A stretch of 64,000 nt of DNA from a bacterium (GCA_018660415.1 JABJKG010000013.1:129874-193873); one strand, 5' to 3'; counted from the stretch's first letter, positions 15,391 to 34,897 are shown. Program-made: numbers and translations. The notes: generated by a model not told the origin, from the sequence alone.

Positions 15391-16509
15391 ATGAAGAAGC
15401 TATTAAGTGTTGTATGTTTGATTTTCTGTGGTTCTTTGTATGGTATGCAAAAAAAAGCTATTATTTTTGGAGTTACCGGGCAGGACGGATCTTATTTAGC
15501 TGAATTGCTATTAAGCAAGGGGTATGAGGTTCATGGGGTTAAGCGCAGGTCTTCTTCCTTTAACACTTCTCGGTTAAATAGTTTGTATCAAGATTCTCAT
15601 GGTGAGAATGTTAGTTTTAAACTTCATTATGGTGATCTAACCGATTCTCTCAATATAACGAGCCTTTTACGAGAAATAGAACCAGATGAGATTTATAATC
15701 TTGGAGCTCAAAGTCATGTTCGGGTGTCATTTGATATTCCAGAGTACACCGGTAACTGTGACGGCTTAGGTACGCTTCGCATTTTAGAAGCAATTAGGTT
15801 TTTAGGGCTAGAGCAAAAAACAAAATTCTATCAAGCATCGACTAGTGAACTTTATGGATTAGTTCAAGAGATCCCTCAAAAAGAAACGACGCCTTTTTAT
15901 CCACGATCACCCTATGCTGTAGCTAAGATATATGGGTATTGGATTACCGTGAACTATCGAGAATCATATAATATGTTTGCGTGTAACGGTATTTTATTTA
16001 ATCATGAATCTCCTCGTCGTGGAGAAACTTTCGTAACCAAAAAAATCAGTATGGCTATTGCTAAAATTAAGTATGGTCTTCAGGATTGTTTATACTTAGG
16101 AAATATGGATTCCAAGCGTGATTGGGGTTATGCAGCTGATTATGTTGAAGCTATGTGGATGATGTTACAACAGGATAAGCCGCAAGATTTTGTTATAGCT
16201 ACTGGTGAAACTCACACAGTTCGGGAGTTTGTTGAAGTTGCTTGTAAAGAGGCTGGCATTGCTTTAACGTGGCAAGGATCTGGTCTTGATGAAGTAGGAA
16301 TTAATGCTTCTGGTAAAACAATAGTTAAAATTGATCCTCGTTACTATCGTCCAGCAGAAGTGGAATTTTTACTTGGAGATCCTTCAAAAGCTGAAAAAGA
16401 ACTTGGATGGAAGCCTAAGGTTTGTTTTAAAGAGTTAGTTAAGCGGATGGTTCAGTTTGATTTAGAACAGTGTTGTATGAGTAATAATGTACGTCGAAAC
16501 AAGGAATAA
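15391..16509 (+). CDS. gmd: GDP-mannose 4,6-dehydratase with an 18-aa N-terminal hydrophobic extension
   Basis: Motifs [22 protein letters not shown] and NHESPRRG. A Shine-Dalgarno-like AGGAAG lies 7 nt before the ATG at 15391. No such site precedes the internal Met at 15445. Confidence 0.93.
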
Positions 16510-16510
16510 C

Positions 16511-17503
16511 ATGAAAAAAACATATGTATTGATGATCGTCTTTTTATTTGTCACTATGGCTGAATGTGCTATGGATAAAAACGCAAGGATTTTTGTTGCT
16601 GGTCATAGAGGGTTAGTGGGCTCGGCATTGGTTAGAATCCTGGACGATCTTGGTTATCATAATTTAATATTACGGTCTCATGATGAACTTGATTTAACTG
16701 ACAAATTGGCTGTAGAAGAGTTTTTTGCGCAAGAAGAGCCGGATTATGTATTTTTAGCTGCAGCCAAGGTAGGGGGTATCGTTGGAAATAGCCGCTATCC
16801 GGCAGACTTTATATATGAAAACCTTCAAATTGAAACCAATGTGATTCATTCTTCCTATAGATTTGGAGTTAAAAAGCTCCTATTTCTAGGTTCATCTTGT
16901 ATATATCCGCGTATGTGTCCACAACCAATTAAAGAAGAGTATTTATTAAGTGACTATTTAGAGCCCACAAACGATGCCTATGCGATCGCAAAGATTGCTG
17001 GGATCAAAATGTGCCAATCGTATAATAAGCAGTATGGGACTAATTTTATAGCCTGTATGCCTACAAACCTTTATGGGCTTAATGATAACTTTGATTTAGA
17101 AATGTCGCATGTGCTTCCAGCTCTTATTGCAAAGGTTCAGAAAGCCAAGGCTAATGGCGATAAAAACTTTGTAGTTTGGGGGACAGGTCAAGTTAAACGA
17201 GAGTTTCTCTATGTTGATGATTTAGCTGAAGCATGTGTTTTTCTTATGAACAATTATGATGACAGTGATATTATTAACATTGGGACCGGTGAAGATGTAA
17301 CTATTGCTCAATTGGTGGAGGCTGTGAAAAGGGCTATAGGATATGACGGTGAAATTATTTATGATACTACCAAGCCGGATGGTACTCCTCGTAAGTTACT
17401 GGATGTAAGCAAAATAAATAATCTTGGGTGGAAGGCTAAGCATTCTTTAGCGGATGGTTTAGAGCTGACAACCAAATGGTATAAGCGGACCATTATCGGA
17501 TGA
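16511..17503 (+). CDS. fcl: GDP-L-fucose synthase (GDP-4-keto-6-deoxymannose 3,5-epimerase/4-reductase) with a 20-aa N-terminal hydrophobic extension
   Basis: Motifs RIFVAGHRGLVGSA and YAIAKIAG. AAGGAA lies 6 nt before the ATG at 16511, which is 1 nt after the gmd stop. Confidence 0.9.
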   Translation: MKKTYVLMIVFLFVTMAECAMDKNARIFVAGHRGLVGSALVRILDDLGYHNLILRSHDELDLTDKLAVEEFFAQEEPDYVFLAAAKVGGIVGNSRYPADFIYENLQIETNVIHSSYRFGVKKLLFLGSSCIYPRMCPQPIKEEYLLSDYLEPTNDAYAIAKIAGIKMCQSYNKQYGTNFIACMPTNLYGLNDNFDLEMSHVLPALIAKVQKAKANGDKNFVVWGTGQVKREFLYVDDLAEACVFLMNNYDDSDIINIGTGEDVTIAQLVEAVKRAIGYDGEIIYDTTKPDGTPRKLLDVSKINNLGWKAKHSLADGLELTTKWYKRTIIG

Positions 17504-17530
17504 TTGATCTTTTTTAAATAAAGGTTGCAT

Positions 17531-18406
17531 ATGAAGAGTAAAGCGGTAACAGCTATTACTTTATGCTTTTTGCAGTTAACGTTTGGAGACTCTGCTATAA
17601 GTTATCAAATTTCCGGTGGGAGACTCGGAGATCAGTTGATTTCCTACTGTATAGCTAAGGAGATTTCTCTTAAATATGACATTCCCTTATTGTATAAACC
17701 CTTTAAGTATTCAGATCAGCTTCAATTATCATTATTAGATAAGTCTTTTTCTTCAAATTTTGATCACTATACAACTGTGGAAATAGGGCATGATCTTCCT
17801 AAAGAAATTAAAAAGAAAAAGAAGAAGGCAACGCATATTTTATATGAAGTGGCTTTTCAGCACTGGAGAGCTTCTACTCCTGATAAAGCATGGTATGGGG
17901 TTTGTTCTGACCAATCATTTCGGCAGGAACTAAGAAAATACATTGCACCATGTTCAGATATTTCTGTTGTAAAGCCACCAAAAGGTGTAATCAGTGTAGC
18001 GATGCATGTTAGAACTGGTGATGGCTATGATCCAGGGAGCTTAGTGGATAGTTATTATGAAAAATTTCCTAAAGATGATTTTTTTATTGATCAAATTCTG
18101 CGGTTAAATGAGATATTTAGAGGTAATTCATTATATATTTATATTTTTACGGACTCTTTGAATACGGGTGTAATTAAAGCTAAATTTCAGTCGGTTTTTA
18201 GTGATTATCCAAGTATAGTTTTTAATTGTAAGGACGGAGACAATGGCTGGGATAATAATGTACTGGAGGACTTGTTTTCAATGCCTTACTTTGACTGTTT
18301 GATTCGTCCAAAATCAGGTTATTCGGTCATTGCTCAAGCCATAGGGAATTATAAAGTTGTTTTATATCCAGGAGGGGAAATCAATAATTTAACAACTTCG
18401 AATTGA
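17531..18406 (+). CDS. Putative fucosyltransferase (GT11/GT23/NodZ-type superfamily) with signal-anchor
   Basis: Motifs GGRLGDQLISYCIA (compare GGLGNQMFQYA), HVRTGD (compare HxRRGDY), IFTDS and LFSMPYFDCLIRPKSGYS. It lies directly downstream of gmd-fcl. Confidence 0.5.
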   Translation: MKSKAVTAITLCFLQLTFGDSAISYQISGGRLGDQLISYCIAKEISLKYDIPLLYKPFKYSDQLQLSLLDKSFSSNFDHYTTVEIGHDLPKEIKKKKKKATHILYEVAFQHWRASTPDKAWYGVCSDQSFRQELRKYIAPCSDISVVKPPKGVISVAMHVRTGDGYDPGSLVDSYYEKFPKDDFFIDQILRLNEIFRGNSLYIYIFTDSLNTGVIKAKFQSVFSDYPSIVFNCKDGDNGWDNNVLEDLFSMPYFDCLIRPKSGYSVIAQAIGNYKVVLYPGGEINNLTTSN

Positions 18407-18417: not shown

Positions 18418-19557
18418 TTAGTTCCAATCGATATCCCAAATATCCAACTTCTTGAATAAGGATTTTCCATACTGTTCTAACCATACTTGTACTTGTATTT
18501 TTTGCCAACTTTTGGCATGAGCATAAATATCCTTGTCAAAAAACTTATATTCTGAAAACCAGCTTTGTGGAGAAACTTTAGTTTCTAATCCAACTTCATT
18601 TTTGCTTTCACCGTATATTTTATTTATTTTATAAGGGTTCATTTTTGGATTACGAATTCGCTCTAAACATCGATACCATGCTTGTTTTATTAAAAGATTC
18701 TCCCAATTAACAAATTGGAAATGCATGAGGCCCACAGAGTAATCTCCTTGATAACGGGTGGTGATTACACTAGTAAATTGGTTTGTTGAATAGATTGTCC
18801 AAGCTTTAGTGGCTTGCGCTTGAGGAGATAAATCTGCATATTTTTCTTGTACGAAGTGTAGAACTTGAGTCAAGCGTATGCGTTGCTGGTAGTTTAAATG
18901 TATAACTTGTTGTGGCCTAAAATGCAGTAAAGGATCTTCAAGAGTAAGGTTATATCTTTGTCCTGTGAGATTCAGGTTCGGTGATCTAGAGCAGTGGATG
19001 AAGTTAGAGTTATATGAGCAGCCAGGCTGATCACAAAATATACAGTCATTAAGACTTCCAGACCAAGGAGAGCTATCGTATCGATATTGTTCTGTAGATC
19101 GCCACAGTTGAATCCAAGTAGCGTGTAGAACATCACCAGGTTGTAAAGATAAAATTTTATTACGAAGGAAATTTTTATGTAGGCAGTTACTAGTGAAAAT
19201 TTCATCAGCATCAATAACGATGAAATGGGTTCCACCAGCCTTTCTACCCGCCTCTAGTAGTTTGTTTTTATCTCCAGGTTCATCTCTAAACCAAACCGTT
19301 TTTTTGATTATTTGTACAATATTACATTCGTTAGCTAGTGACTCTAGTATTGGAACTGTTTTACCATCATCCGATGCATCATCAAGAACTATAATAGCAT
19401 CTGTATATAAAGATAGTGCTTTGAGACATTGTCCTACTATATCAGCTTCGTTCCTTACTGCCACAAGCCCAATGATTTTGTGTGGTTTTTTAATTTGATT
19501 GTATGCATTTATACTTAGAACGAAGAAGGAAAATAAGAGTATACTTAATTTTTTCAT
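18418..19557 (-). CDS. GT2-like (GT-A fold) glycosyltransferase with signal-anchor
   Basis: Motif VAVRNEADIVGQCLKALSLYTDAIIVLDDASDDG...FIVIDADE (DxD). Confidence 0.6.
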   Translation of the reverse strand: MKKLSILLFSFFVLSINAYNQIKKPHKIIGLVAVRNEADIVGQCLKALSLYTDAIIVLDDASDDGKTVPILESLANECNIVQIIKKTVWFRDEPGDKNKLLEAGRKAGGTHFIVIDADEIFTSNCLHKNFLRNKILSLQPGDVLHATWIQLWRSTEQYRYDSSPWSGSLNDCIFCDQPGCSYNSNFIHCSRSPNLNLTGQRYNLTLEDPLLHFRPQQVIHLNYQQRIRLTQVLHFVQEKYADLSPQAQATKAWTIYSTNQFTSVITTRYQGDYSVGLMHFQFVNWENLLIKQAWYRCLERIRNPKMNPYKINKIYGESKNEVGLETKVSPQSWFSEYKFFDKDIYAHAKSWQKIQVQVWLEQYGKSLFKKLDIWDIDWN

Positions 19558-19575: not shown

Positions 19576-20472
19576 TTATTTAAATTTTATAAAATCTTTA
19601 AATTTATAGCGCATGCCATTTTGGGAAATAAATATAGACGTTTCTGGTAGAAGTGCTTGACTATCCCAATGTACATGGATTGGGTCTAATGGATTGTTCT
19701 TTGATTCGAGAGGAATCCATCCTTGAAGGGAAATATCAAAATTTTGAATATTCGCATAGATACTGTATAAGGGTTGATCATGGCGTGCTGCTCCTAATCC
19801 AAGAGGTGAAGATCCATCGTCTTCAAAAATACTTATATTTGAAGAAAGTTGGTATATAGGGAGAACATAATCATCATAAACTTTACGAGAGAGACCTTGC
19901 ATGCCGGCTGAAATACTCAGTGCGTTTGGGCTTAAAAGATGATGTTTGTGCTCGGAAAATTGTTCATTTATTATATTGTGTAACACATTTTTTGTTAATC
20001 GACAGGCAATGTCATGACCACAATCTACCAGGAAATATCCTTTGTTTTCTATATGCTCAAATAGAGTATCTAGTGGTTGTAAAACGGAAATGCCTGCATC
20101 GAGATAAAGCATATAAGGGAAAAGCTCAAGCCCTTGCTTTATGGCTACTGGCTTCCAAGTAAAACATCCTCGCACTTTTCGGGTAGGTCCTGTGAGCATT
20201 CGTTCAAACATTTGCGGATTAGTTTTTTCAAGGTTGTATACTTGTACCTTATTAATGGTTTGTAAGAGTTTGCATTGTTTCTTTGTAAATCCTAGATCAA
20301 AAACTGCAATTTCTTGTAAGTTACCAAAGTTTGTTTTATGAATACTTCCAATTAAATTGAGTAATAGTTCAAAATGTTCCTTATCTGCACTGGTGCAGTA
20401 ATATTGAGGGATAGGGTAACTAAGTTGGGTTACAGAAACTAAGAGAAAGATAAATAATTTAGTGAATTTCAC
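19576..20472 (-). CDS. Unassigned GT-A-like protein, paralogue of 29025-29933, with signal peptide
   Basis: Shares QLSY.IPQYYCT..D......LLNLIGSIHKTNF, WKPV.IKQ.L..FPY..YLDAG and ARHDQPL.SI with the ORF at 29025-29933. Confidence 0.6.
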   Translation of the reverse strand: MKFTKLFIFLLVSVTQLSYPIPQYYCTSADKEHFELLLNLIGSIHKTNFGNLQEIAVFDLGFTKKQCKLLQTINKVQVYNLEKTNPQMFERMLTGPTRKVRGCFTWKPVAIKQGLELFPYMLYLDAGISVLQPLDTLFEHIENKGYFLVDCGHDIACRLTKNVLHNIINEQFSEHKHHLLSPNALSISAGMQGLSRKVYDDYVLPIYQLSSNISIFEDDGSSPLGLGAARHDQPLYSIYANIQNFDISLQGWIPLESKNNPLDPIHVHWDSQALLPETSIFISQNGMRYKFKDFIKFK

Positions 20473-20636
20473 TAATTTCCTTTCTTGAGGAATTTACACA
20501 GGATATTCTTTCCAAAAATTATCAAATTATTCCAAAAACTACAACTTGATTTTTGTTGACATAAAATGGTTAAATCTAATAAAGATTAATATATTTTAGT
20601 TTTTAAAATATAAATAAGGAATTTACTTATGGGTAA

Positions 20637-20906
20637 CACAAGCCAAGTCTTTGGAATAAGATAGGAAAGGACATCCACTGGAGTGTTGTTTTTATAGATC
20701 ATCGTCCGGGTGAAAGGCGTATTGAAGATGTGCGTCGGCTAAGAAAGAATACAGATATTTTTATTGTGCATGATACAGAAGAGGCTGGATACAAATACGA
20801 ACCAACCTTTTCGTCTTTCAAGTCTGTATATAGATTTTCTAGGTATAGGTCTCTCACAACTGCAGTAAGTGATACGGTGGATGTTTCAAAACTGTTTGAT
20901 TATTAG
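20637..20906 (+). pseudogene. Start-less 89-codon reading frame, probable 3' remnant of a methyltransferase-like gene
   Basis: The frame is open from the stop at 20634 to the TAG at 20904 and has no ATG/GTG/TTG near its 5' end. It encodes ..WSVVFIDHRPGERRIEDVRRLRKNTDIFIVHDTE.., which resembles the FLDAHW...VIIVDD region of the ORF at 33941-34897. Confidence 0.35.
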
Positions 20907-20910
20907 TATT

Positions 20911-20946: not shown

Positions 20947-20963
20947 ATAAAAGTAAGATATGT

Positions 20964-21761
20964 TTAATTAAGTTTGGCAATTGATAGCATTTGATCAATC
21001 ACGTGTTTGTATTGTTTATATGGACGAGAACAATGAGCATCGATATAGCGTTGGTTTCTAAGATGTGAAGCATTGAATTTCATATTATCACCACGGTCTA
21101 TTCTTGGACCTACATTATGGTTTAATTTAACGCAATCTTGTGAGTATCTTTGCCAGCGAGTTAAGCATTCATATAGCATGCGTTCATCAGTAAACCAGCC
21201 CATTCCAAGTGTGTGCCAGTGACTCATAAGAGCTCGCATATCATCAAAACTCTCTACTTGGAAAATTTCCTTAAAAGTACTTCCTAAAGCTGCATTGTAG
21301 CACATTGGAAATGCATTTGGATTAGGCCCGTATGCAGCATTGCGGTATACTATAAACTTATGATCAGGTATTTTTCGAATTGGCTTAGTAAAGTATTTTA
21401 ATTGTAGTGGAAACATATCAATATCGGACAACAGACAGAAATCTGTTGGGAATAAGGCAGGTATCAAAACTCGAATTACTTGGGCCTGGTATCCGGTATT
21501 TAATCCCTCTACTGGATCTATATAAACAACATCACCATATGTTTCATCAATTGGATTGTTTTCATCCCTTGTTCCAATAAATGCTAGAGTTGGTCGAACC
21601 GTATTGTTGGAAATTCGGCACCAAGCTTTTGATACCAGTGGCCAAAACTCTAGATATGTAGGATTATTATCTGATGCAAAAATCACACGATTTATTTGTG
21701 CAGTTTGAATATTTTGGCATGTCAAAGCAAGTGCCAAAATAAAGAAAAGTCCCTTTTTCAT
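20964..21761 (-). CDS. Putative glycosyltransferase of unassigned family with signal peptide
   Basis: 265 aa with signal MKKGLFFILALALTC. A DxD-like motif LLSDIDMFPL follows a hydrophobic strand. The call rests on context within the glycan island. Confidence 0.45.
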   Translation of the reverse strand: MKKGLFFILALALTCQNIQTAQINRVIFASDNNPTYLEFWPLVSKAWCRISNNTVRPTLAFIGTRDENNPIDETYGDVVYIDPVEGLNTGYQAQVIRVLIPALFPTDFCLLSDIDMFPLQLKYFTKPIRKIPDHKFIVYRNAAYGPNPNAFPMCYNAALGSTFKEIFQVESFDDMRALMSHWHTLGMGWFTDERMLYECLTRWQRYSQDCVKLNHNVGPRIDRGDNMKFNASHLRNQRYIDAHCSRPYKQYKHVIDQMLSIAKLN

Positions 21762-22099: not shown

Positions 22100-23509
22100 A
22101 TGCATTTTAAATATATGATGTTGATTATAGGTTTGTTAAGTACTTTTCATATTACAAAAGGCGATGGTCAAAATAGAGACACTCCCTTGTATGTTCCCGG
22201 TGAGTATCTAGAAGAGTCTCCTTTGGTGCTAGTTAATGCACAGAGATTTGATCTTATGGCGAAGTATTTGTTTGCACAGTCGTATATTATGAACTTAAAA
22301 ACAGATTGGTTTTCTTGTTTGTATGAATCACATTTAAGAGTTTGGAATGGTTGCCATGAAGAGTATCCTCCGTCTTCTATTCTCAATTTTAATTGTGCTC
22401 GAGAATATAAAGAAAAAAGAGGAATAAGAGAGTATATTGAGTCATTTAGTGCCTTGTTAGATTCTATACGGACAAAAGGATTTGATCTTTCTCAGTCAAT
22501 TATTCCTACTAATATACACAAGCAAATTAAAGATGGGGCACATCGAGTTTCAGCTTGCTTGCTATTTGATAAGCCGGTTAAATATAAGAAATTTGATGAT
22601 TCTAATTTCATAGCTGCTACAGCAGAATACTTTAAGAAAGCGGGTCTAGAAGATGGGTTTTTAGATGCTATGGCATTGCAGTATTGTAAATTGAAGTCTA
22701 ATACCTATGTTATTAATCTTTTCCCAGACGCTTTGAAGAATGAAGCTGAAGTGTATAAAATATTGTCCAAGTACGGGACAATTGTATACGAAAAAAATGC
22801 TACTTTGTTTAAAAATGGCCCATTAAATCTTATTCGCATGTTATATGAAGAGCCATTTGAAGGGTGGAACAATAACTTTGCTAAGGAAAAAAGCGAGCAT
22901 TGTTTTTTTGGAAAACATAAAAAACATCGTATGAGATTTATTTTGTTTGAGTGTGATTCTTTAGAAAAAACTACGAAATGCAAGTCTGAAATCAGAGCCT
23001 TCTTTAAGAGTTATGACGTTATCCACATCAATGATACACATGAGGAAAGTATTTTATCGGCTCAAACAGCGTTTAATAATAATAGTCTACATTTTATCAA
23101 CCATGCCTCTCCTAAGCACTTTAAAAACTTTACCGATCTTTTTGGTCGGTTTAAGCAATGGATCGCTAGAGAGGGTTATTCCCTAGATTATTTTTGTATT
23201 GATACGAGTGCGGTTTTGTCTGTTTATGGCATTCGAGAATGTGCTGATTTAGATTATTTGCATTCTGGTAGCCCAATTGATTCAGGAATTGTTGGTATTG
23301 ATGATCACGACTGTGAATTAAGATACCATGCAAGTTCAAAGGATGATATTGTTTTCAATCCAGAGAACCATTTCTACTTTAAAGGTGTAAAGTTTTGTTC
23401 TTTGAACACTATAAAAAAATTGAAACAAAAACGGAATGAAGTAAAAGATCAAAAAGATATTAAGATGATTAACGAGCTGCTAGCAAGTAAAAAAGCAGCT
23501 CGTTGTTAA
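22100..23509 (+). CDS. Hypothetical two-region protein (ParB/Srx-like DGAHR region plus minimal nucleotidyltransferase-like region) with signal-anchor
   Basis: Motifs KDGAHRVSACLL and CIDTSAVLSVYGIRECADLDYL (an hG[GS]-x(9-13)-DxD-like pattern). Confidence 0.4.
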   Translation: MHFKYMMLIIGLLSTFHITKGDGQNRDTPLYVPGEYLEESPLVLVNAQRFDLMAKYLFAQSYIMNLKTDWFSCLYESHLRVWNGCHEEYPPSSILNFNCAREYKEKRGIREYIESFSALLDSIRTKGFDLSQSIIPTNIHKQIKDGAHRVSACLLFDKPVKYKKFDDSNFIAATAEYFKKAGLEDGFLDAMALQYCKLKSNTYVINLFPDALKNEAEVYKILSKYGTIVYEKNATLFKNGPLNLIRMLYEEPFEGWNNNFAKEKSEHCFFGKHKKHRMRFILFECDSLEKTTKCKSEIRAFFKSYDVIHINDTHEESILSAQTAFNNNSLHFINHASPKHFKNFTDLFGRFKQWIAREGYSLDYFCIDTSAVLSVYGIRECADLDYLHSGSPIDSGIVGIDDHDCELRYHASSKDDIVFNPENHFYFKGVKFCSLNTIKKLKQKRNEVKDQKDIKMINELLASKKAARC

Positions 23510-23510
23510 C

Positions 23511-26533: not shown

Positions 26534-27979
26534 TTGAAAAACAAATTTTTTTATATTTTCGGAATGAGTTTGTTATTCCTCACTGCCTTAACCACCAATC
26601 TTTGTGCTGATGAAAAAGGCTTAGAAAAGCATTTAACTATCATTATTCCAAGTTATAACAATGCACAATGGTATGAAAAGAATTTGCGGTCGGTGTTCAT
26701 GCAAAAGTACTCTAATTATTCGGTTATATACTGTAATGACTGTTCTACTGATGATACTTTCAATAAAGTACAAAAATACATTTGCAGTGTTGGTATGGAG
26801 GATAAAGTAACATTAATTTCTAATCCGGTTAGGCGAGGTAAGGCTGCTAATTTATGGCTAACTCTTCATAATCGAAACTCTGAATATATTATTTCCGATG
26901 AAAGTATTGTTGTTGTTTTAGATGGTGATGATTGGTATCCACACGATGGGATTTTTTCCTATATTAATAAATTATATACGGAGAATGATATTTGGTTTTC
27001 TTATGGCGGATTTCAAGAGTATCCTTCTCAAAAAAAATGCTTTAATAAGCCAATTCCACAAAAAATATTAGATACTAATAGTTTTCGTAAAGCAGGGGCT
27101 TTTGGTTCTCAACAGCGCACATTTTATGCATGGCTATATAGGCAAATAAAATTAGAGGATTGTATTTGTGAAGGATATTTTATTCCTGTCGTTAGTGATA
27201 TAGCTAAAGTTATTCCAATGTTAGAGATGTGTTCTCCACGCTTCAAATTGGTTGATGATTACATTTATGTTTATAATCGATTGAACACTATTAATGATGA
27301 TAAGATTGATCATAAACTACAATGGAAAATTGATCATTATTTTAGGTTGAAGCCAGCATATCCAAAATTGCATGAGCCCAAGTTTTTATCTCTTGATAGT
27401 TATGCTCCAATAGATTGTATTGTGTCAGTGCAGGAGCATCAATTGAATAAAATCGATCCTCAAAGTCTATATAGTCAATTAGAACAGCAGTTTTCTGATA
27501 TTGGAAGAGTAATTGTTCTAGCAGACCAAAAAAGTCGCTACTTAGTTGTAGAGCATGATGGTTCTAATCATTTTAAAACAACAAGGGGTGTTGGTTTAAA
27601 CTCTTTATTAAAGGGGGTTTCGAGCAAATATGTTTGTTTTCTTAACTTAGAAAAGCTGGCTTGTTTTAACAGTACCAATTTATCTGAAGTTAATCATTCA
27701 TTGGAAAAAACTCATGCATTTTGTTATGAAATTTTTCCAGCTAAGCAAAAGCATTATGAACAGCTTGGTAGCGGATTATGTGGCTATCAAACCAGTTGTT
27801 CTCTGTCTTATATAAAAAAGAGAGGCGGGTTTGATGGAATGGTTTATAAAACTGAGGAGCTAGTTTCTTTCCTGGGTGGACTAGAAGAAAAAACTTTTTC
27901 TTTTTTTAAGAAAAAGTGGGATGAGTACTGTTGTTCTCGTCAAAACAGGCATAAAATTTGTCTTCTGCATAAAAATTAA
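26534..27979 (+). CDS. GT2 glycosyltransferase with a ~220-aa C-terminal extension of unknown function
   Basis: TTG start after AAGGAA. Motifs IIIPSYNNAQWYEKNLRSV..Q.YSNY..IYCNDCSTDDT, LDGDDW and RTFYAWLYRQI. Paralogous to 29997-30758 and to the C-terminus of 31771-33918. Confidence 0.75.
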   Translation: MKNKFFYIFGMSLLFLTALTTNLCADEKGLEKHLTIIIPSYNNAQWYEKNLRSVFMQKYSNYSVIYCNDCSTDDTFNKVQKYICSVGMEDKVTLISNPVRRGKAANLWLTLHNRNSEYIISDESIVVVLDGDDWYPHDGIFSYINKLYTENDIWFSYGGFQEYPSQKKCFNKPIPQKILDTNSFRKAGAFGSQQRTFYAWLYRQIKLEDCICEGYFIPVVSDIAKVIPMLEMCSPRFKLVDDYIYVYNRLNTINDDKIDHKLQWKIDHYFRLKPAYPKLHEPKFLSLDSYAPIDCIVSVQEHQLNKIDPQSLYSQLEQQFSDIGRVIVLADQKSRYLVVEHDGSNHFKTTRGVGLNSLLKGVSSKYVCFLNLEKLACFNSTNLSEVNHSLEKTHAFCYEIFPAKQKHYEQLGSGLCGYQTSCSLSYIKKRGGFDGMVYKTEELVSFLGGLEEKTFSFFKKKWDEYCCSRQNRHKICLLHKN

Positions 27980-27999: not shown

Positions 28000-29019
28000 G
28001 TGAAAAAACACTATGGTTTATATTTGATTCTAACTTTTATTGGCTTGATAGGCAACATGGATGCCAAAAGGATTTATATTGTTCCACCGGGAGGATATGA
28101 AGATGGTAAGTTGTTTAAGCTTTCCAATGATTGGCTTAATCGGGACATGGTTAATCAGATTTGGTGTGATTTGAAAGCGGAGCTTAATCGAAGAGGGCAT
28201 ACAATTCAAACAGTGCGTATGAATGCCAATATGAATAATTGTGATGCTCTTATTGTGTGTGGTATTTTCCCTCAATATTTTAATGTTTATCAACGATTGA
28301 CTAATGCTGGAAAAAGAGTTATTTCTCTTTTGTTTGAACCAAAAACGGTTGAGCCTCAGAGCTATAATAGGAACTATTACAATCATTTTACAAAAGTAAT
28401 AACAATGTATGATGATGATGTAAGAGAGGTCGGTAACTGTATGAAATTACATTATGCTCAGCCTCATTTATCTATGCGTGAATCAGTATCGTTCTCTAAA
28501 AAACGCTTATGTACTATGATTAACTCCAATAAGAGTTCTAATTATAAAAACTCTCTGTATGGTGAGCGTCAAAATGCAGTAAAAGAGCTAAGTAAGCATC
28601 CCCAAGACTTTACATTCTATGGTCAAGGTTGGAATGTAAAGCGATGGAAGTGTTATGGTGGTGGTGTTAAGAGTAAGTCGGATACTCTTGTGAATTTTAA
28701 ATTCTGTATTTGCTATGACAATACGAATGATGCCAATGGATATATCACTGAGAAAATTTTTGACAGCATGCAAGCAGGGTGTGTTCCTGTTTACCTAGGA
28801 GCTCCTAATATAACCGACTATGTTCCGGCAGAATGCTTGATTGATAAGAGAGATTTTAGCTCATATGAAGATCTCTACAACTTTATGAAAAACATGACCC
28901 AGGAAGAGTACCAAAAATATATAGATAATATTCAAGCTTTTTATGCTTCCGAGATGGCAGAAAGGTTTTCTGGTGCCCATTTTGCAAAAACTGTCTGTGA
29001 AGCTCTAGCTGTCGAATAA
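28000..29019 (+). CDS. GT10-type alpha-1,3/4-fucosyltransferase-like protein with N-terminal signal-anchor
   Basis: Variant of the alpha-1,3-FucT motif, FCICYDNTNDANGYITEKIFD, followed by GCVPVYLGAPN. GTG start. Confidence 0.7.
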   Translation: MKKHYGLYLILTFIGLIGNMDAKRIYIVPPGGYEDGKLFKLSNDWLNRDMVNQIWCDLKAELNRRGHTIQTVRMNANMNNCDALIVCGIFPQYFNVYQRLTNAGKRVISLLFEPKTVEPQSYNRNYYNHFTKVITMYDDDVREVGNCMKLHYAQPHLSMRESVSFSKKRLCTMINSNKSSNYKNSLYGERQNAVKELSKHPQDFTFYGQGWNVKRWKCYGGGVKSKSDTLVNFKFCICYDNTNDANGYITEKIFDSMQAGCVPVYLGAPNITDYVPAECLIDKRDFSSYEDLYNFMKNMTQEEYQKYIDNIQAFYASEMAERFSGAHFAKTVCEALAVE

Positions 29020-29024: not shown

Positions 29025-29933
29025 CTATTTATAACGTATAAATCTCATGGCTCCACCTTGATAGTTGGGGCCTTGAGTTCGTGATACATAAATAACGCTA
29101 TCTTGGTTGAGCTGACTTTCTAGGTGATGAATATGTACAACTTTTTTTTCATTTTTTAGTTGCAGAACAAAATAGCCTCGCTCAGTGAAAAGACGATAGC
29201 CGTTTATATGGGCTAGAATACTAAATAAAGGCTGATCGTGTCGAGCTTCTCCTTTACCTTTAGAAGAGCTTCCATCATCAACAAATAGAGTGACATCTTT
29301 AGCAAATTCATACATCGGCATTACGTACTCGTCGTAGACCTTTCGTGAAACCCCTTGAAGGCCAGCAGTTACAGATGGAGTATCCTTACAGGTTAATAGC
29401 CCTCTATATTGCGCATACAGCTGGTTCATGATTTGTTTACGCACTCGTTTGGTAGAGCGATCTATAATGTTGTGCTCAGGGCCAGGGGCTAATAAAAAAT
29501 AGCCGTTTGCTTCTATATACTCAAAAATATCATTCAATGATTTGAGAACAGTAACTCCAGCATCTAAATAAAATACATACGGGAATTTATCTAGGGATTG
29601 CTTAATGACAACTGGTTTCCATGCATATGATCCAGGAACTCTTTTTCCGCTTCGCGTAGTAACTATGGGTTTAATAATATCAGGATGGACATGATCAACC
29701 TCATGAACCGTTACTTTTGCAATTTGTTTGAGTGAGTTGATTTGTTTTGCAGACATTCCCAGGTTAAATACAGCAATTTCTACAAGCTCATCAAAGTTAG
29801 TTTTATGGATACTGCCAATTAAATTTAAGAGGTTGGGATAATAAGTAGCATCAGACGCGGTACAATAATATTGAGGAATGCTATAGCTGAGTTGGGTGAT
29901 GAGTAATAGTGATAAAAGGGAAAACTTTTTCAT
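29025..29933 (-). CDS. Unassigned GT-A-like protein, paralogue of 19576-20472
   Basis: Shares the motifs listed for 19576-20472 and has signal MKKFSLLSLLLITQLSYS. Confidence 0.6.
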   Translation of the reverse strand: MKKFSLLSLLLITQLSYSIPQYYCTASDATYYPNLLNLIGSIHKTNFDELVEIAVFNLGMSAKQINSLKQIAKVTVHEVDHVHPDIIKPIVTTRSGKRVPGSYAWKPVVIKQSLDKFPYVFYLDAGVTVLKSLNDIFEYIEANGYFLLAPGPEHNIIDRSTKRVRKQIMNQLYAQYRGLLTCKDTPSVTAGLQGVSRKVYDEYVMPMYEFAKDVTLFVDDGSSSKGKGEARHDQPLFSILAHINGYRLFTERGYFVLQLKNEKKVVHIHHLESQLNQDSVIYVSRTQGPNYQGGAMRFIRYK

Positions 29934-29996: not shown

Positions 29997-30758
29997 TCAA
30001 AGCTCATGGTTGGTGATTTTTGGATATTGAGGCTTGCTGCGTATGACCTGAGCAATATCTAATTGTTCTTGATAATTGTTTTTAAAGTCATTGAGTGGGG
30101 TTTGATTGTTGTAGATATATAAGACTTCTCGAATAAATCGTATGTGTCCTCGTGCCATTTCGACCATTGGTAACATTTCAGCTACATCGCCAGCAATTTG
30201 AAAAAACTCACCCTGATGTTGAAGATCGTTTTTAGGAATTTTTTTAAAAAGCCATGCATAATAAGTTCTGAGTGCGCTTGTGTAATAACAGGTTGACGCA
30301 CGAAAATCAAAATCTTGGGGTAGTTTTTTACAGTGGCCTTTTTTATTACTAGGGAACCGTTTATATTGTCCGTACGTTACCCAGATATCATACTTAGAAT
30401 AGACTTTATTGATTTTCTTTAAGACATTATCATGAGCAAACCAATCATCACCATCTAGGATGAGAATTATTTCATTATTTTCACACAAGTGAGAGCCTTT
30501 ATAGCGGTTAGCGGTAGCGCCCTGCCGAGTTTCATTTTTAATGAGGGTTACACGCTGTTGTTGGTGTTTTTCATAAATGTACTGTTCTACTAGGTGAGCT
30601 GTGTTATCTGAAGAGTGATCATCAAGATAAATAATACGATAGTTGGTGTAGTTTTGGTTGAAGATGGAATCAAGGTTGTGTTTATACCACTGAGCATTGT
30701 TATAGGAAGGGACTACAACAACGAGTTTTTTTTCAGGGATAGGTTTAAAAAAGAACAT
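29997..30758 (-). CDS. GT2 glycosyltransferase (the only enzyme of the island without an obvious hydrophobic N-terminus)
   Basis: Motifs VVVPSYNNAQWYKHNLDSIFNQNYTNYRIIYLDDHSSDNT, LDGDDW and RTYYAWLFKKI. Confidence 0.8.
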   Translation of the reverse strand: MFFFKPIPEKKLVVVVPSYNNAQWYKHNLDSIFNQNYTNYRIIYLDDHSSDNTAHLVEQYIYEKHQQQRVTLIKNETRQGATANRYKGSHLCENNEIILILDGDDWFAHDNVLKKINKVYSKYDIWVTYGQYKRFPSNKKGHCKKLPQDFDFRASTCYYTSALRTYYAWLFKKIPKNDLQHQGEFFQIAGDVAEMLPMVEMARGHIRFIREVLYIYNNQTPLNDFKNNYQEQLDIAQVIRSKPQYPKITNHEL

Positions 30759-30760: not shown

Positions 30761-31774
30761 TTATTCCTTTAAGCAGGATAAGTAAGTTTCTATCATAGCT
30801 TCTTGGGAAAAAGGACGAGCTTGGGGTCCAGCCAAGAAGTTTTTTATATTGGTTAGGTATTGCTCATGTTTTTTTGCTGATATATTTTTTATAAAACTAT
30901 AGAGCTCTTGATATGAGTTAAAGTTTCTCATATTGATAAAACAGTTTTGAGGAATATATTTATCTATATTTGGTGCACCGAGATATATAGGGACACAGCC
31001 TCCAAAAAAGCAGTCAAAGATTTTTTCAGTGATATAGCCAGCAGGGCCATCCATGTTTTCAAAGCAAATGTAAAAGCGATAATTGCTCATGCATTTATAC
31101 TTATTATCAACGGAACCTTTATAGCTTTTCTGGCGATTGCCAGCACATGAACGGCCGAATAAATCAAGTTCATACGTGTTTAAATTGTCAAAGAAGTCTA
31201 TTATTTCTAGGCGTTTATTGAAGAGTGCCTGTGGGTGGTTGGAGTGGCGATTGCTACTAATCATGGTACAGAGCTTTTTTTTATTAAAAGGGCGTTGATC
31301 GTGCATGAATGGGTTGGTTGGATTTAAATTGTATTGCATCCAATGAAATTTATGCACCTTTTTATTATCAATTAGTTCGTCGTTCCAGGTGAATATATTA
31401 TCAACAATATCCCATCGACGTTGTTGGTATTGATGGGGGCTGGTAGCTGGTGGTTCAAATAGAAACGCTGCCGTTTTAGCATTGCGTAATGGCCTTAGCT
31501 TTCCATGGGTTAATGACATGGGCAAGTTGAAGAAAATAACACAATCGGCGTCATAGGAATCCTGTAGTGATTGTAGTGAGTACTTGGCGGCTTGAGCACT
31601 ATAACCCTTTTTATGTAGAGCTTTTTTAAATTTTTTCCAAAAACCATTATCGTGTTCATCTTGTTGAAAAAAGTCACCATAGTCTTGTGCAAGATCATAC
31701 AAAAGCCGCAGCTTTTTTTGTTGAGGCTGTATGAGCGTTGGGAGTAAAAAGGCGTATAATAATAGTTTTTTCAT
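30761..31774 (-). CDS. GT10-type alpha-1,3/4-fucosyltransferase-like protein with N-terminal signal-anchor
   Basis: Canonical FYICFENMDGPAGYITEKIFD followed by GCVPIYLGAPN. The preferred start forms an ATGA stop/start overlap with the upstream gene. An alternative ATG is at 31798. Confidence 0.8.
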   Translation of the reverse strand: MKKLLLYAFLLPTLIQPQQKKLRLLYDLAQDYGDFFQQDEHDNGFWKKFKKALHKKGYSAQAAKYSLQSLQDSYDADCVIFFNLPMSLTHGKLRPLRNAKTAAFLFEPPATSPHQYQQRRWDIVDNIFTWNDELIDNKKVHKFHWMQYNLNPTNPFMHDQRPFNKKKLCTMISSNRHSNHPQALFNKRLEIIDFFDNLNTYELDLFGRSCAGNRQKSYKGSVDNKYKCMSNYRFYICFENMDGPAGYITEKIFDCFFGGCVPIYLGAPNIDKYIPQNCFINMRNFNSYQELYSFIKNISAKKHEQYLTNIKNFLAGPQARPFSQEAMIETYLSCLKE

Positions 31775-33918
31775 AACTTTTCTGCGGTTTGGTAGCACGG
31801 AGTAGTGAGTACTTTATGATGAACTTTTGCTTCTACGGTTTTATCAATGTTTTTAAAATCGTTGAGTGGGGAATCGATATTGCGCATTAAAAGTGGTTTC
31901 GAAATATAGGAGATATTAGTTTCAGCCATTTCTAAAATAGGATAGAAGGTTGCAGCATCATGGAACACTGGGATGAAGGCATTATCGATCATGAGATCTT
32001 CTTTTCTTATCCGTTTGAAGAGCCACGCATAATAGGTGCGTAGTCCTGAATAATGCCAAACCCTTTCTCTGAATGCTTTATTTTTTACTACCCATAATGG
32101 TGTTTGTTTACACCAGTTTTGCATATTGAGCTTTTTTGCAAGCTCGGGAGGGTTGTTTATATAGTTTCCATATACGGCCCAAGAACCTTGTTGATACTCT
32201 TTGTTAAGTCGGGTGAGAACATAGGGATCGATTAAGTAGTCATCACCATCAAGCTCTACGATGATAGAGTCATCAGGGCATGAATGAATGGCGCTATAAA
32301 GGTTGCTGAGTTTTTTATTTCGGTGGCTATTGCAAACAAGGGTGACCAGATTTTTTTTGTCCTTTTGTTCTAAATATTCTTGAACGAATTGCCCCGTATT
32401 ATCTGGTGATTGATCATCAACGTATATGACATTGAAATTAGGATATTGTTGTTCAAGTACCGAATCTAAGTTCTTAACATAATATTTACTATTATTGTAG
32501 GAGGTTATTAGTACGGTAAAGTGGTGATCGTGTTCCTGGGCATATTTTCTATTCGAGAGTAATTGTTGCACATGATACATAAGGTTAGGAATTGTTGAAA
32601 GCCATCCATGCCTGATCCTTTTTATAAACATTTGGCTCAGGTGATTTTGTTGGTGAATAAGGATTCCATAAGTCATTACGAAAAACAATGCATTAGAGAA
32701 AAGAGTGGCAATTACGCAACCATAAATATTAAAACGTGGTATTAAAAGGATATTAAGGCCGATATTGGTGGATGCTGCAGAAATGTTAGTGACGAGAATG
32801 GTCCAGGTTTTTTTCTTAAAAACCAGATAACAGGAGCTAAAATAGGTTCCCATAAAAAGAACATTCCCGAGTAGCATTGGTAAGACATACTGGAGAGATT
32901 GGTGGTACTTTGTAGGTAAGAACCATGGTCCTACTTTAAGAGCAAATAATGAGGCAATGGTTACGCTGACTCCCATGAATGCCATAGCAAGCCACATGGT
33001 TTTGAGGTTGCGATTTTCTATTGTTTTAAGGGGTTCTTTTTTTTCAGCGTATTGTTTGAGCATATATGGAACGTAGGAACCGCTAAGAGGTAAAAGTACG
33101 GTCATTTGAAACATCATGGTTGATTGATCAGCAAATGCGTAAATACCTACATTATGCATATTGGTCAGATCTGCCAACACCCAACGATCGCCAAAAGAAA
33201 GGATCCAATTGAATAAAATATTAGGGATAAAGGGAAGTCCTAGCCATAATAAGTTTCTTGCATCTTTAAACTGAGGAATTTTTATATATTCTTTTTTTTT
33301 CAAACCAATTTGTTTTTTGTAATAAAAGAAGGCTATGGCACAAATGGTAGAGATTCCAAGAAAATTACTGGTGATAACACCAAGGATTCTGAAGTTGTAA
33401 TAAAAGACAAGAATAGCCGTGGAAGCGATCGATACTAAGGCAGCAGTAAGTTGGATAATGGTGAGCTTGCGGGCGTTACTTTGATAGCGCAATACCTGAA
33501 GATATAACTCGGAAAAAAACTGCACAAAACAATAGATCATGGCCAGTATCATGATGGTTTTTGATGCAAGTCCCAAAAATATAAATTGATTTAGCCAATG
33601 CTGGTTGATGATTAATAAAATAAATATGGGTATAGCAATTACAAGATACGTTTGGATGATGCTATGAAACACTTGTTTGCGCCCAGCCGAGTCATGATGG
33701 AAGTACTCGAGTCCAAATACTTGTCGGAGTCCAAGATTCAAAAAAAGAGGGAATAGCGCACAAAAATTATTTATGAGAGAAAGAAGCCCAAATTCTGATG
33801 TGGTTAGGATGGTTACCGTTACCAGAGTTGTGCCCCATGTAATTCCACGTAGTACAATGGCGCCACACGAGTATGTTAAAAAATTCTTGATGAGAGTTGT
33901 ATTGAAGTGTTTTATCAT
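31771..33918 (-). CDS. Fusion protein: Wzx/MOP-type polysaccharide flippase (about 440 aa, multi-TM) plus C-terminal GT2 domain
   Basis: The N-terminus has many TM helices and Polysacc_synt-like features (LIKNF..Y..G......TTSEFGLLSL). The C-terminus has VLITSYNNSKYYVKNLDSVLEQQYPNFNVIYVDDQSPDNT, LDGDDY and RTYYAWLFKRI. Confidence 0.65.
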   Translation of the reverse strand: MIKHFNTTLIKNFLTYSCGAIVLRGITWGTTLVTVTILTTSEFGLLSLINNFCALFPLFLNLGLRQVFGLEYFHHDSAGRKQVFHSIIQTYLVIAIPIFILLIINQHWLNQFIFLGLASKTIMILAMIYCFVQFFSELYLQVLRYQSNARKLTIIQLTAALVSIASTAILVFYYNFRILGVITSNFLGISTICAIAFFYYKKQIGLKKKEYIKIPQFKDARNLLWLGLPFIPNILFNWILSFGDRWVLADLTNMHNVGIYAFADQSTMMFQMTVLLPLSGSYVPYMLKQYAEKKEPLKTIENRNLKTMWLAMAFMGVSVTIASLFALKVGPWFLPTKYHQSLQYVLPMLLGNVLFMGTYFSSCYLVFKKKTWTILVTNISAASTNIGLNILLIPRFNIYGCVIATLFSNALFFVMTYGILIHQQNHLSQMFIKRIRHGWLSTIPNLMYHVQQLLSNRKYAQEHDHHFTVLITSYNNSKYYVKNLDSVLEQQYPNFNVIYVDDQSPDNTGQFVQEYLEQKDKKNLVTLVCNSHRNKKLSNLYSAIHSCPDDSIIVELDGDDYLIDPYVLTRLNKEYQQGSWAVYGNYINNPPELAKKLNMQNWCKQTPLWVVKNKAFRERVWHYSGLRTYYAWLFKRIRKEDLMIDNAFIPVFHDAATFYPILEMAETNISYISKPLLMRNIDSPLNDFKNIDKTVEAKVHHKVLTTPCYQTAEKL

Positions 33919-33940
33919 ACAAGTTCAGTAACGCCATCGA

Positions 33941-34897
33941 TTATGAAGTTTTTAATGCATTAGTGAGAGATTCTATTTTTGATGATTGATAGTTAATTTT
34001 TTTCAATAAATTTAGCGACTTATAGGCCTCTGTACGGTTTGAAGAATAGAAATCTATAATGCTTTTCCATAGAATATATGGCCCTAAAATACACTTGTCA
34101 GATCGACAGAACCGTTTGTACAGGTTTAACATAAATTCTTTATCTACAGAATTAATGTCTTTTAATCCAAGTTCTACATTGTTATTTACTGTTTGATTTT
34201 CTTCTTCTAAGCGACTTTGAGTCATAATTTTAATTGCAGGTGAAATTTCTACAGAGTCATCATCGAAGGCTATGAGTACGTCTCCATAAATAACTATTTG
34301 ATAGTGAGGGTTGATATCTTTAAGGAGGGCAATCGTTTCATTAAGGGTGGGATATCCACTTTGATCCCGGTGGGATGGGTAGGTATTATATTTTGAAAAA
34401 AAACGCATATCATCAACAATAATAACAGCATTGCTAACGTTTGACTGTTTAATAGCACGGAGCTCGTTTTTGATTGGTGTATTTTCTTCTCCTCGAGCAG
34501 TATCGCCACTGGACCAGTGAGCGTCAAGAAAGAAAAGTATTTTCCCTTGAGAGCCTTTGACCATTTGAGGTAAAGTAGCTGCAGAATCGCCATGATATAT
34601 ATGAATGTGTGATTGATTCTTAAACATGTTTTCACATCGTTTGAATAGGTGGTCAGAAAGTTCTACCGAGTGGATGTCAGAAAAGATAGGGGATGCAAAT
34701 TTTACGCTTTCTCCAGAACAAGTGCCAGTTTCAATGAATGTTACGATATTAAAGGTTTGTTTAATATAACGGAAAAAATCTGGTGTAAGAGCATCGTCAT
34801 AATTTTTAGCAGGCATCAATTCAAGACTGTTTGGGCATACATTTACGATAGAAAAAAGATTGAGAACCAATAGTATCTTTGATAGAGTTTTCTTCAT
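33941..34897 (-). CDS. Putative Rossmann-fold (SAM-dependent methyltransferase-like) protein with signal peptide
   Basis: Motifs FIETGTCSGES, HSVELS, FFLDAHW and IIVDDMRFF. Family not firmly recognised. Confidence 0.4.
   Translation of the reverse strand: MKKTLSKILLVLNLFSIVNVCPNSLELMPAKNYDDALTPDFFRYIKQTFNIVTFIETGTCSGESVKFASPIFSDIHSVELSDHLFKRCENMFKNQSHIHIYHGDSAATLPQMVKGSQGKILFFLDAHWSSGDTARGEENTPIKNELRAIKQSNVSNAVIIVDDMRFFSKYNTYPSHRDQSGYPTLNETIALLKDINPHYQIVIYGDVLIAFDDDSVEISPAIKIMTQSRLEEENQTVNNNVELGLKDINSVDKEFMLNLYKRFCRSDKCILGPYILWKSIIDFYSSNRTEAYKSLNLLKKINYQSSKIESLTNALKTS

Follow-up and report, generated by a model that had tools for sequence, protein, structure and literature searches.

We analysed a 64-kb stretch of bacterial DNA (GCA_018660415.1 JABJKG010000013.1:129874-193873, hereafter the window) that carries, at positions 15391-34897, a glycosylation island of 17 back-to-back open reading frames (ORFs) in six alternating strand blocks (Table 1). 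Genes without a name are referred to by their first coordinate. A first-pass annotation made from the sequence alone had described 17 genes here for GDP-fucose synthesis (gmd, fcl), fucosyltransferase-like proteins, glycosyltransferase family 2 (GT2) domains, methyltransferases and a Wzx flippase, nearly all with a hydrophobic N-terminal segment. Curated models bear out this gene content at those positions, and hidden Markov model searches matched GDP-mannose 4,6-dehydratase (GMD), both GT10 proteins, five GT2 domains, FkbM and a Wzx-type Polysacc_synt domain. The impression by eye that the region is AT-rich also held, if modestly, with 34.9% GC in the island against 38.4% and 40.4% in the flanks. 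As the same annotation had observed, the classical O-antigen set is missing: neither Pfam searches nor inspection of polytopic proteins, both confined to the 64-kb window, revealed a Wzy, Wzz, initiating phosphoglycosyltransferase, ligase or ABC exporter. The only polytopic protein found is the Wzx-GT2 fusion (31771).

The first two genes encode the GDP-fucose enzymes. GMD carries a readable Rossmann GxxGxxG motif (GVTGQDGS) and a catalytic YxxxK motif (YAVAK) behind an N-terminal predicted signal peptide of 18-20 residues. The GDP-L-fucose synthase (FCL) aligns over model positions 2-302 of 308, scores slightly below the NF047922 cutoff of 500 bits and contains the corresponding YAIAK motif. 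Its predicted signal peptide is MKKTYVLMIVFLFVTMAECA, with the ancestral start Met kept immediately behind it.

For 17531, an AlphaFold model (pLDDT 92.6) gave AtFUT1, FUT8, NodZ and POFUT1 as the best Foldseek matches (E = 5e-8 to 4e-6, TM about 0.55). By predicted fold, the protein matches the fucosyltransferase GT-B superfamily (GT11, GT23, GT37, GT65), and the assignment stops at that level rather than at a particular CAZy family because no sequence-family model matched. Its family comprises 121 proteins, all named members being Babeliales or Chlamydiae, with R31, G33, D34 and R161 conserved and an N-terminal motif G-G-R-[LF]-G-[DN]. The 20964 protein, from a family of 551, was modelled with a pLDDT of 96 and matched glycogenin (GT8) and GT6 enzymes at E about 1e-6; a BFVD fold search with this model returned generic GT-A matches only, at identities of ≤14%. 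The 22100 domain found zero Pfam matches even to E ≤ 10. It belongs to a very large family without a Pfam model (2144 representative clusters at 50% identity) and elsewhere is often embedded in proteins of 1000-4000 residues with FkbM, GT10, GT2 and TPR domains, the first three of which are also its neighbours in the island.

The five GT2 domains, identified by PF00535, lie in 18418, 23511 (C-terminal half), 26534, 29997 and 31771 (C-terminal half). In the PDB, neither sequence nor profile searches produced a usable match for the 17531, 20964, 22100, 25709 and GT8-like families, and a single-sequence PDB query with 33941 also gave none, its family profile alone succeeding. Profile-profile comparisons (hhalign) of the families without assignment against the GT2 family yielded nothing significant, and an Rfam scan of the window returned no match. 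A 670-bp gap (14721-15390) separates gmd from the upstream genes, and gene callers place a 103-residue ORF without a family match at 14670-14981 on the minus strand; two further gaps, of 490 bp (20473-20963) and 338 bp (21762-22099), lie within the island.

Table 1. Genes of the island, followed by other features of the window; SP, predicted signal peptide.
Feature	Coordinates	Strand	N-terminus	Basis and remarks
gmd, GDP-mannose 4,6-dehydratase	15391..16509	+	SP	TIGR01472, 593 bits (cutoff 415); model begins at residue 21
fcl, GDP-L-fucose synthase	16511..17503	+	SP	NF047922, 478 bits; model begins at residue 24
Fucosyltransferase-superfamily GT-B enzyme	17531..18406	+	SP	AlphaFold + Foldseek; no Pfam model for the family
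GT2 (GT-A) enzyme with C-terminal part without family	18418..19557	-	SP	PF00535, PF13704
GT8-like enzyme, GTG start	19576..20472	-	SP	Paralogue of 29025-29933 (45% identical)
GT-A glycosyltransferase, DxD motif SDIDM	20964..21761	-	SP	AlphaFold + Foldseek; no Pfam model
Domain of ~420 residues without family, DGAHR motif	22100..23509	+	SP	No Pfam match
Two-domain glycosyltransferase	23511..24890	-	SP	N-terminal phrog_14945 type, C-terminal GT2 (PF00535)
FkbM-family methyltransferase	25013..25690	+	SP	PF05050, 60 bits
Glycosyltransferase, phrog_14945 type	25709..26512	+	SP	PHROG match; paralogue of the N-terminal half of 23511-24890
GT2 'PSYNN' family with C-terminal half without family, TTG start	26534..27979	+	SP	PF00535, 59 bits
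GT10 fucosyltransferase, GTG start	28000..29019	+	SP	PF00852, 63.1 bits (cutoff 23.9)
GT8-like enzyme	29025..29933	-	SP	Weak PF01501 match; paralogue of 19576-20472
GT2 'PSYNN' family	29997..30758	-	Signal-less, predicted cytoplasmic	PF00535, 78 bits
GT10 fucosyltransferase	30761..31774	-	SP	PF00852, 68.6 bits (cutoff 23.9); start at MKK codon
Wzx-type flippase fused to C-terminal 'PSYNN' GT2	31771..33918	-		PF01943 (60 bits) + PF00535
Class I SAM-dependent methyltransferase	33941..34897	-	SP	Family profile matches PDB methyltransferases (1vbf, E = 3.9e-6)
wecB, wecC, fused Zn-ADH/GFO oxidoreductase	10040..14720	+	Signal-less	Pfam; upstream of the island
PilN homologue	801-1865			ORF without family upstream
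Ankyrin-repeat protein	8162-8845		Signal-like	
GT4 glycosyltransferase	42814-43941		Signal-less	
Isolated M41 peptidase domain	44023-44670		Signal-like	Adjoins FtsH-like gene 44756-46306
M3 oligopeptidase	48545-50641		Signal-like	
GT4 glycosyltransferase	59573-60667		Signal-like	

In 15 of the 17 island proteins, a hydrophobic core comes after a basic N-terminus, as called by the heuristic discussed below. The exceptions, GT2 29997 and the Wzx fusion, are exactly the two that the first-pass annotation had named. Among 16 housekeeping cytoplasmic proteins in the window, which include AlaS, GlyA, EF-P, NusB, UvrB, Pth, PrmC, S1, transaldolase, WecB and WecC, none begins in this way (0/16; Fisher's test against the island, p = 1e-7). 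The background outside the island is high, with 17/34 ORFs signal-like (island against these, p = 0.007).

We considered whether these N-termini could be an annotation artefact, in which the true starts lie downstream and AT-rich upstream DNA merely translates into lysine-rich and hydrophobic sequence. T-rich DNA does encode F, L and I, both gmd and fcl keep an in-frame Met behind the segment, and the NCBI pipeline (PGAP) starts gmd at the internal Met (354 residues, MBT4856183.1; 372 residues from other gene callers). Against this, AGGA-type Shine-Dalgarno motifs lie 5-10 nt upstream of most long starts, GTG and TTG starts included. Three starts needed a small correction to an MK(K) codon, to 16511 for fcl, 17531 for the gene that follows it and 31774 for the second GT10. 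M1 of gmd is preceded by aGGAAGAg and the MKK start of fcl by AAGGA; 25709 has a strong AAGGAG, 19576 has AGGA before its GTG, and 26534 also has a motif. No Shine-Dalgarno motif precedes the internal Met of gmd (M19) or fcl (M29). Furthermore, most signal-bearing GMD homologues lack any internal Met (e.g., MKQILLLIILCCSPILEAQPKVALITGVTGQDG in strain Noda2021), so in these the signal is necessarily translated. Downstream starts, which the first-pass annotation had itself raised as a threat to its reading, are thus countered both by the motifs at the long starts and by the homologues. Adding the housekeeping proteins, the equally AT-rich viral homologues described below (0/88) and an n, h and c architecture conserved over hundreds of proteins, we regard an artefact as highly improbable and essentially refuted already. 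We note that homology-guided start choice masks the gmd signal peptide in public annotation, which amounts to an annotation blind spot.

The two GDP-fucose enzymes differ in what follows the signal. Signal-bearing FCL homologues (on fetched loci L015, L019, L025, L027, L043, L050 and L059) almost always keep the ancestral-start Met behind it, in the motif M-x-K-D/N-A-K-I-[FY]-V-A-G-H, and signal-bearing GMDs are mostly without such a Met. The retained FCL Met hints at dual initiation and hence dual localisation.

In all 15 N-termini, an n-region with a charge of +2 to +4 leads into a hydrophobic core of about 10-14 residues without charges; only 4/15 pass a 19-residue window of Kyte-Doolittle (KD) hydropathy > 1.6. 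Judged from curated models and AlphaFold beta1 strands, the catalytic fold sets in 3-15 residues past the core, and there is therefore no stem region. To define the c-region, we took 91 sequences from the 20964 family and lined them up by the Arg that is invariant in beta1. Counting from this Arg, residue -5 is A/G/S/C in 98% of the sequences, -7 is mostly aliphatic (L or I), -8 is P/S/T, -18 to -10 are hydrophobic and uncharged, and Lys occupies -21 and -22. In signal-peptidase numbering, this corresponds to A/G/S/C at -1 (98%), L/I/A/T at -3 (87%) and a P/S/T helix breaker at -4. The family conserves a classical signal-peptidase I (-3,-1) site, beyond the needs of mere membrane anchoring. 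In the other families, the small-residue c-region was judged by eye only. Inspection by eye also led us to reject a lipoprotein signal, for want of an L-[AS]-[GA]-C lipobox, and a Tat signal, for want of an RR motif.

Given the short cores, the lack of a stem and the conserved signal-peptidase I site, the island N-termini look like cleavable Sec signal peptides rather than Golgi-type signal-anchors. The Golgi type II layout proposed in the first-pass annotation is therefore not supported. Golgi type II enzymes do resemble the island proteins in placing a short basic N-terminus and a hydrophobic segment before a catalytic domain, non-cytoplasmic in the former and predicted to be so in the latter, and the repertoire is Golgi-like as well, with GT10, FUT8/NodZ-like and GT8-like enzymes in the island and GT90, GT6 and GT34 in relatives. 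However, the Golgi enzymes have an uncleaved transmembrane (TM) segment of 17-22 residues and a stem, whereas the shorter, stemless segments here, with their signal-peptidase site, predict soluble exported enzymes.

A different possibility is that uncleaved anchors or in-plane helices hold a classical cytoplasmic assembly line of nucleotide-sugar-dependent (Leloir) enzymes beside Wzx. This would preserve the textbook topology of nucleotide-sugar-dependent steps and make cofactor supply trivial; some proteins have basic residues directly past the hydrophobic core, and in chlamydial GT2 homologues such as that on L079 the hydrophobic segment is longer and leads into a K/R-rich linker. Yet a start as basic as MKK should orient the protein N-in, C-out, the cores are not long enough to cross the bilayer, the catalytic fold follows them closely and the 20964 family conserves its peptidase I site in addition to hydrophobicity. 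Signal-less paralogues coexist in the same island, indicating that tethering is not intrinsic to the family, and viral and presumably free-living homologues do without the segment. We consider tethering unlikely.

We used the 'PSYNN' GT2 to scan a genome collection. The best matches were in TM6/Dependentiae metagenome-assembled genomes (MAGs), at 77% and 65% identity, with numerous Dependentiae/Babeliales and environmental Chlamydiae among the further matches. Marine metagenomes contain the identical contig again, and L006, a groundwater TM6 MAG, is syntenic with the window, neighbouring glyA included. The organism is thus a marine Dependentiae (TM6) bacterium, an obligate parasite of protists; this placement is based on protein identity, synteny and hallmark content. 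Given the synteny, glyA included, the island is ancestral in the lineage, and we reject a recent horizontal acquisition.

In L006 and a second TM6 locus, L007, the signal is present on the same genes as in the window and absent, as there, from the 29997 orthologue, the oxidoreductase and the Wzx fusion. The L006 order is glyA, Wzx-GT2, GT10, signal-less GT2, GT8-like, GT10, GT2, 20964 homologue, GT8-like, 25709 homologue, FkbM, GT2 and oxidoreductase. Its orthologue of GT10 28000 starts with ATG and carries the signal, as does its orthologue of GT10 30761. The oxidoreductase adjoins the islands of L005, L006 and L007 and is signal-less every time. Counting homologues on the fetched loci, we found a signal-like N-terminus in 18/24 GMDs, 11/18 FCLs, 13/18 GT10 and 8/10 GT8-like proteins and 7/7 members of the 20964 family, compared to 0/16 for the controls AlaS, GlyA, UvrB and the oxidoreductase. 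In a database of 5.8 billion proteins, the fractions were 106/119 for the 20964 family and 92/120 for the 17531 family.

Other loci combine the trait with further enzymes. The L005 contig (26% GC) carries a related island with the oxidoreductase, a signal-bearing GT2, two signal-bearing GMD paralogues, four signal-bearing GT4 proteins, a signal-bearing fusion of ankyrin repeats and GT2 (11412-12581), a 33941 homologue and a GT90 (13541-14624). GT90 is a eukaryote-type protein O-glucosyltransferase family. On L020 (9884-11905), a single polypeptide joins a signal, a 'PSYNN' GT2 and a GMD. Strain Noda2021, a Dependentiae isolate cultivated in Vermamoeba (PMC8812299), encodes UDP-glucose dehydrogenase (UGDH), FCL and GMD side by side, all signal-bearing. 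All GMDs are ~70-75% identical, and the signal-bearing ones are scattered in several small separate groups of the identity matrix, compatible with either one or several origins of the signal. On L003/L004 (ENA KRAE22-1, JGI 3300042916; 38% GC), a signal-bearing GMD, GT10 and M3 peptidase stand beside PagL, LicD and patatin genes, and the trait may reach beyond Dependentiae and Chlamydiae.

Three of the island's glycosyltransferase families ('PSYNN' GT2, 20964 and GT8-like) also occur on viral or giant-virus contigs, with identities of up to 47%. We found 282 viral relatives of the 'PSYNN' GT2 (≤47% identity), named giant-virus MAGs included, and none of the 80 examined has a signal. The six viral relatives of 20964 (0/6, against 106/119 in bacteria) and the two GT8-like ones (0/2, against 8/10) are likewise signal-less, giving 0/88 over the three families. 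A scan of viral contigs with a shallow 17531 alignment found no relative of that family. The viral GT8-like relatives begin right at the conserved YFCTAAD motif. Among bacteria, the 'PSYNN' GT2 signal is present in 108/143 copies (~75%) from Dependentiae, Chlamydiae and other low-GC bacteria and in 0/8 from high-GC bacteria, where the copies (Binataceae, Acidobacteria) start directly at M-KKIAVIIPSYNN. On IMG/VR contigs (L091-L170, many of 100-390 kb), the 'PSYNN' GT2 often sits behind long Pro/Thr-rich or other N-terminal regions.

Since the viral contigs are equally AT-rich (23-44% GC) and their homologues are signal-less, base composition cannot account for the hydrophobic N-termini; the same absence makes the signal a bacterial addition. 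The signal thus follows the compartment of the producer, being present when the protein is made inside an intracellular bacterium and absent when it is made in the host cytoplasm or in presumably free-living bacteria. Viral copies need no signal because they are translated in the host cytoplasm. Of the indirect arguments for catalytic domains destined to work outside the bacterial cytoplasm, this link between signal and compartment is the strongest. The distribution of the 'PSYNN' GT2 suggests that giant viruses and Dependentiae or Chlamydiae have exchanged genes. The first-pass suggestion of acquisition from eukaryotes or giant viruses is therefore supported in part, by the three shared families (≤47% identity), while the signal itself is missing from the viral copies. 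Of the three readings offered there, an exported or host-directed machinery is best supported.

From what is shown, namely which genes are present, what features their signal peptides have and how these are conserved and distributed by lineage, we hypothesize a glycan pathway divided between two compartments, a cytoplasmic arm and an exported arm acting outside the inner membrane; we regard this proposal as evenly poised. The cytoplasmic arm would consist of WecB, WecC, the oxidoreductase, GT2 29997 and the GT2 domain of the Wzx fusion, which the K/R bias of a 12-TM model (21 inside, plus 5 in the tail, and 3 outside) would place in the cytoplasm. It would act at the cytoplasmic face, probably on sugars derived from UDP-GlcNAc, which a peptidoglycan-producing bacterium would make anyway, and Wzx would flip the product. 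The exported arm would comprise the 15 others, namely GMD, FCL, three fucosyltransferase-type enzymes, several GT-A enzymes, two methyltransferases and one protein of unassigned type, leaving the cytoplasm as pre-proteins with cleavable Sec signal peptides. Its site may be the periplasm, the cell surface or, after further secretion, the host cytoplasm.

The exported enzymes would draw on host GDP-mannose, UDP-sugars, NADPH and S-adenosylmethionine (SAM), as well as NAD+ for UGDH in relatives. GDP-fucose would be formed from host GDP-mannose and used for fucosylation, together with methylation, of a glycan outside the inner membrane. The glycan so made would probably be both fucosylated and methylated and would most likely sit on the surface of the bacterium itself. 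In such a scheme the enzyme would go to the substrate instead of the substrate being imported; we infer that export takes place, where the enzymes end up, where their donors come from and what they modify. None of GDP-mannose, NADPH, SAM, UDP-sugars and NAD+ is known from the periplasm of a free-living bacterium. Chlamydiae and Rickettsiae have inner-membrane transporters that take host ATP and NAD+. Because the inner-membrane transporters of energy parasites take these molecules, host metabolites of such size must reach the periplasm. ATP import is reported for Chromulinavorax (PMC6561590). Beyond the outer membrane, such host metabolites are plentiful.

The acceptor would be either a flipped bacterial glycan, for which the close synteny with Wzx speaks, or a protein, of the host or secreted, for which the ankyrin-GT2 fusion and the high cysteine content speak. 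The second option leads to a rival explanation, in which the enzymes are host-directed effectors that cross both membranes, by Sec and type II secretion or outer-membrane vesicles, and modify host or secreted proteins in the host cytoplasm, with Wzx and the cytoplasmic genes forming a separate pathway. The phylum gives this some weight. In the account of Babela, signal-bearing ankyrins and ubiquitin/SUMO proteases are interpreted as secreted into the amoeba cytoplasm via Sec and type II, the latter being the only secretion system found (PMC4378268), and Sec signals in Dependentiae would thus mark presumed host-cytoplasm proteins. A signal-bearing ankyrin-repeat-GT2 fusion exists (L005), the eukaryotic cytosol supplies NADPH, NAD+, SAM and GDP-mannose alike, signal-less viral copies of the same families work in that cytosol, and cysteine richness suits a reducing compartment. 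However, in the window, L006 and L007 the signal-bearing genes are syntenically interleaved with Wzx-GT2 and the signal-less GT2, which suggests one pathway on a lipid-linked or surface acceptor. More than ten transferases plus methyltransferases also resemble complex-glycan assembly rather than single-sugar modification of a host protein, and no outer-membrane secretion signal is readable in the sequence. We consider host-directed effectors doubtful, though a serious contender, and return to the two-compartment pathway.

Several observations weigh against export. Our signal calls come from a home-made heuristic and inspection by eye rather than from dedicated predictors; the heuristic sometimes flags Rossmann N-termini, WecC in the window being an example, and key cases were inspected by eye. 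Several mature N-termini would begin with K/R (gmd QKK, 18418 KKPHK, 28000 KR, 30761 KKLR), a feature that disfavours Sec export in Escherichia coli and blurs the charge bias. The island proteins are cysteine-rich, with 5-16 each, which is awkward for an oxidising periplasm. As Sec exports unfolded proteins, GMD would need to gain NADP+ outside the cytoplasm, and we know of no precedent for a Sec-exported GMD, FCL or UGDH. Because fcl, and here also gmd, keeps a Met after the signal, internal initiation could yield a cytoplasmic isoform. Finally, some Dependentiae differ: on L014, both GMD and FCL are signal-less.

The flanks of the island fit the assigned phylum. The ankyrin, M3, M41 and PilN genes of the window correspond to hallmarks reported for Chromulinavorax, which supports the Dependentiae placement. 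Chromulinavorax destructans carries signal peptides on 44% of its coding sequences, with M3 and M41 among the secreted proteases (PMC6561590). Dependentiae have a very large predicted secretome, roughly half of their proteins being signal-bearing, a context missing from the first-pass annotation. PilN indicates that a type IV pilus or type II secretion-like machinery is encoded on the contig, which bears on how Sec-exported proteins would cross the outer membrane.

Compared to Wzx/Wzy O-antigen and capsule clusters, the island is similar in its nucleotide-sugar genes (gmd, fcl, wecB, wecC), many glycosyltransferases, methyltransferases, Wzx and lower GC. It differs in that its window lacks the initiating transferase, Wzy, Wzz and ligase, in the fusion of Wzx to a GT2 and in the Sec signals on 15/17 enzymes, where classical loci keep all Leloir steps cytoplasmic. 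Another parallel is the glycogen pathway in the inclusion lumen of Chlamydia trachomatis, which reportedly (Gehre et al. in 2016) employs secreted enzymes and host UDP-glucose. There, too, an intracellular bacterium relocates a multi-enzyme nucleotide-sugar pathway outside its cytoplasm and feeds it with a host nucleotide sugar, but through type III secretion and with glycogen as the product, whereas the island has N-terminal Sec signals, GMD and FCL (UGDH in relatives) and methyltransferases, and its export is predicted from sequence.

Secreted Leloir glycosyltransferases are familiar as toxins and effectors, such as Legionella Lgt and SetA, clostridial TcdA/B and NleB, GT-A enzymes that use host nucleotide sugars. 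Each of these acts alone, attaching a single sugar to a host protein after delivery by type III or type IV secretion or self-translocation, unlike a pathway of about 15 enzymes with Sec signals. Chloroviruses encode GMD and GMER. Giant viruses more generally encode glycosylation machinery, according to a review (PMC9614988), and like the window organism are intracellular parasites of protists with a glycan toolkit of their own, three glycosyltransferase families being shared; the difference lies in the signal, which the bacterial copies have gained.

Within the phylum, the described Sec secretomes (PMC6561590, PMC4378268) concern the same signal type, and the window adds ankyrin, M3 and M41 proteins of the same kind. 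The categories listed there are ankyrins, proteases, nucleases and ubiquitin-system proteins, to which the island adds glycosyltransferases and GDP-fucose enzymes. Text searches of both papers gave no mention of glycosyltransferases, GDP-fucose enzymes or fucose, and the Noda2021 genome announcement (PMC8812299) makes no mention of glycosyltransferases or GDP-fucose enzymes. In full-text literature searches, no paper was found in which signal-bearing glycosyltransferases or GDP-fucose enzymes are connected with Dependentiae, or with endosymbionts in general.

According to the textbook rule, nucleotide-sugar-dependent glycosylation in bacteria is cytoplasmic, and only lipid-linked donors are used beyond the inner membrane. 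Set against this rule, the enzymes that form GDP-fucose and some dozen Leloir transferases and methyltransferases have conserved predicted export signals, a trait that hundreds of proteins share across two phyla parasitic on protists. We tentatively propose that Dependentiae, many environmental Chlamydiae and some unclassified low-GC bacteria may run a complete Leloir pathway outside the cytoplasm, a counterpart of the Golgi lumen fed by host pools of nucleotide sugars, NAD(P)H and SAM, which would have evolved by adding Sec signals to families shared with giant viruses. It would include GMD, FCL, UGDH, fucosyltransferases and SAM methyltransferases. If the signals function as their sequences suggest, these bacteria neither import nor make the sugars but dispatch enzymes to the metabolites of the host. 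This would be a side of metabolic parasitism not described before, and it would open a way to glycan mimicry, be it of surface or host glycans. Such a pathway would surprise bacterial glycobiology, the nearest concepts being the chlamydial glycogen pathway, glycosyltransferase effectors and giant-virus glycosylation. Dependentiae isolates exist in culture (Babela, Chromulinavorax, Noda2021), and the idea is directly testable because cultivated Noda2021 has signal-tagged GMD, FCL and UGDH.

Two further features of the window lie outside the island. Three consecutive paralogous proteins at 54497-58826 have signal-like N-termini and E/R/Q-rich, coiled-coil-like bodies with no Pfam match; the 54497 and 56410 proteins are 48% identical, and over the three genes the AT skew peaks (+0.18 to +0.24) and GC is raised (0.42-0.44). 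NusB (36900-37502) has an Asn-rich N-terminal extension, MDDNNNNNLDNS, before a conserved domain that starts at about residue 52.

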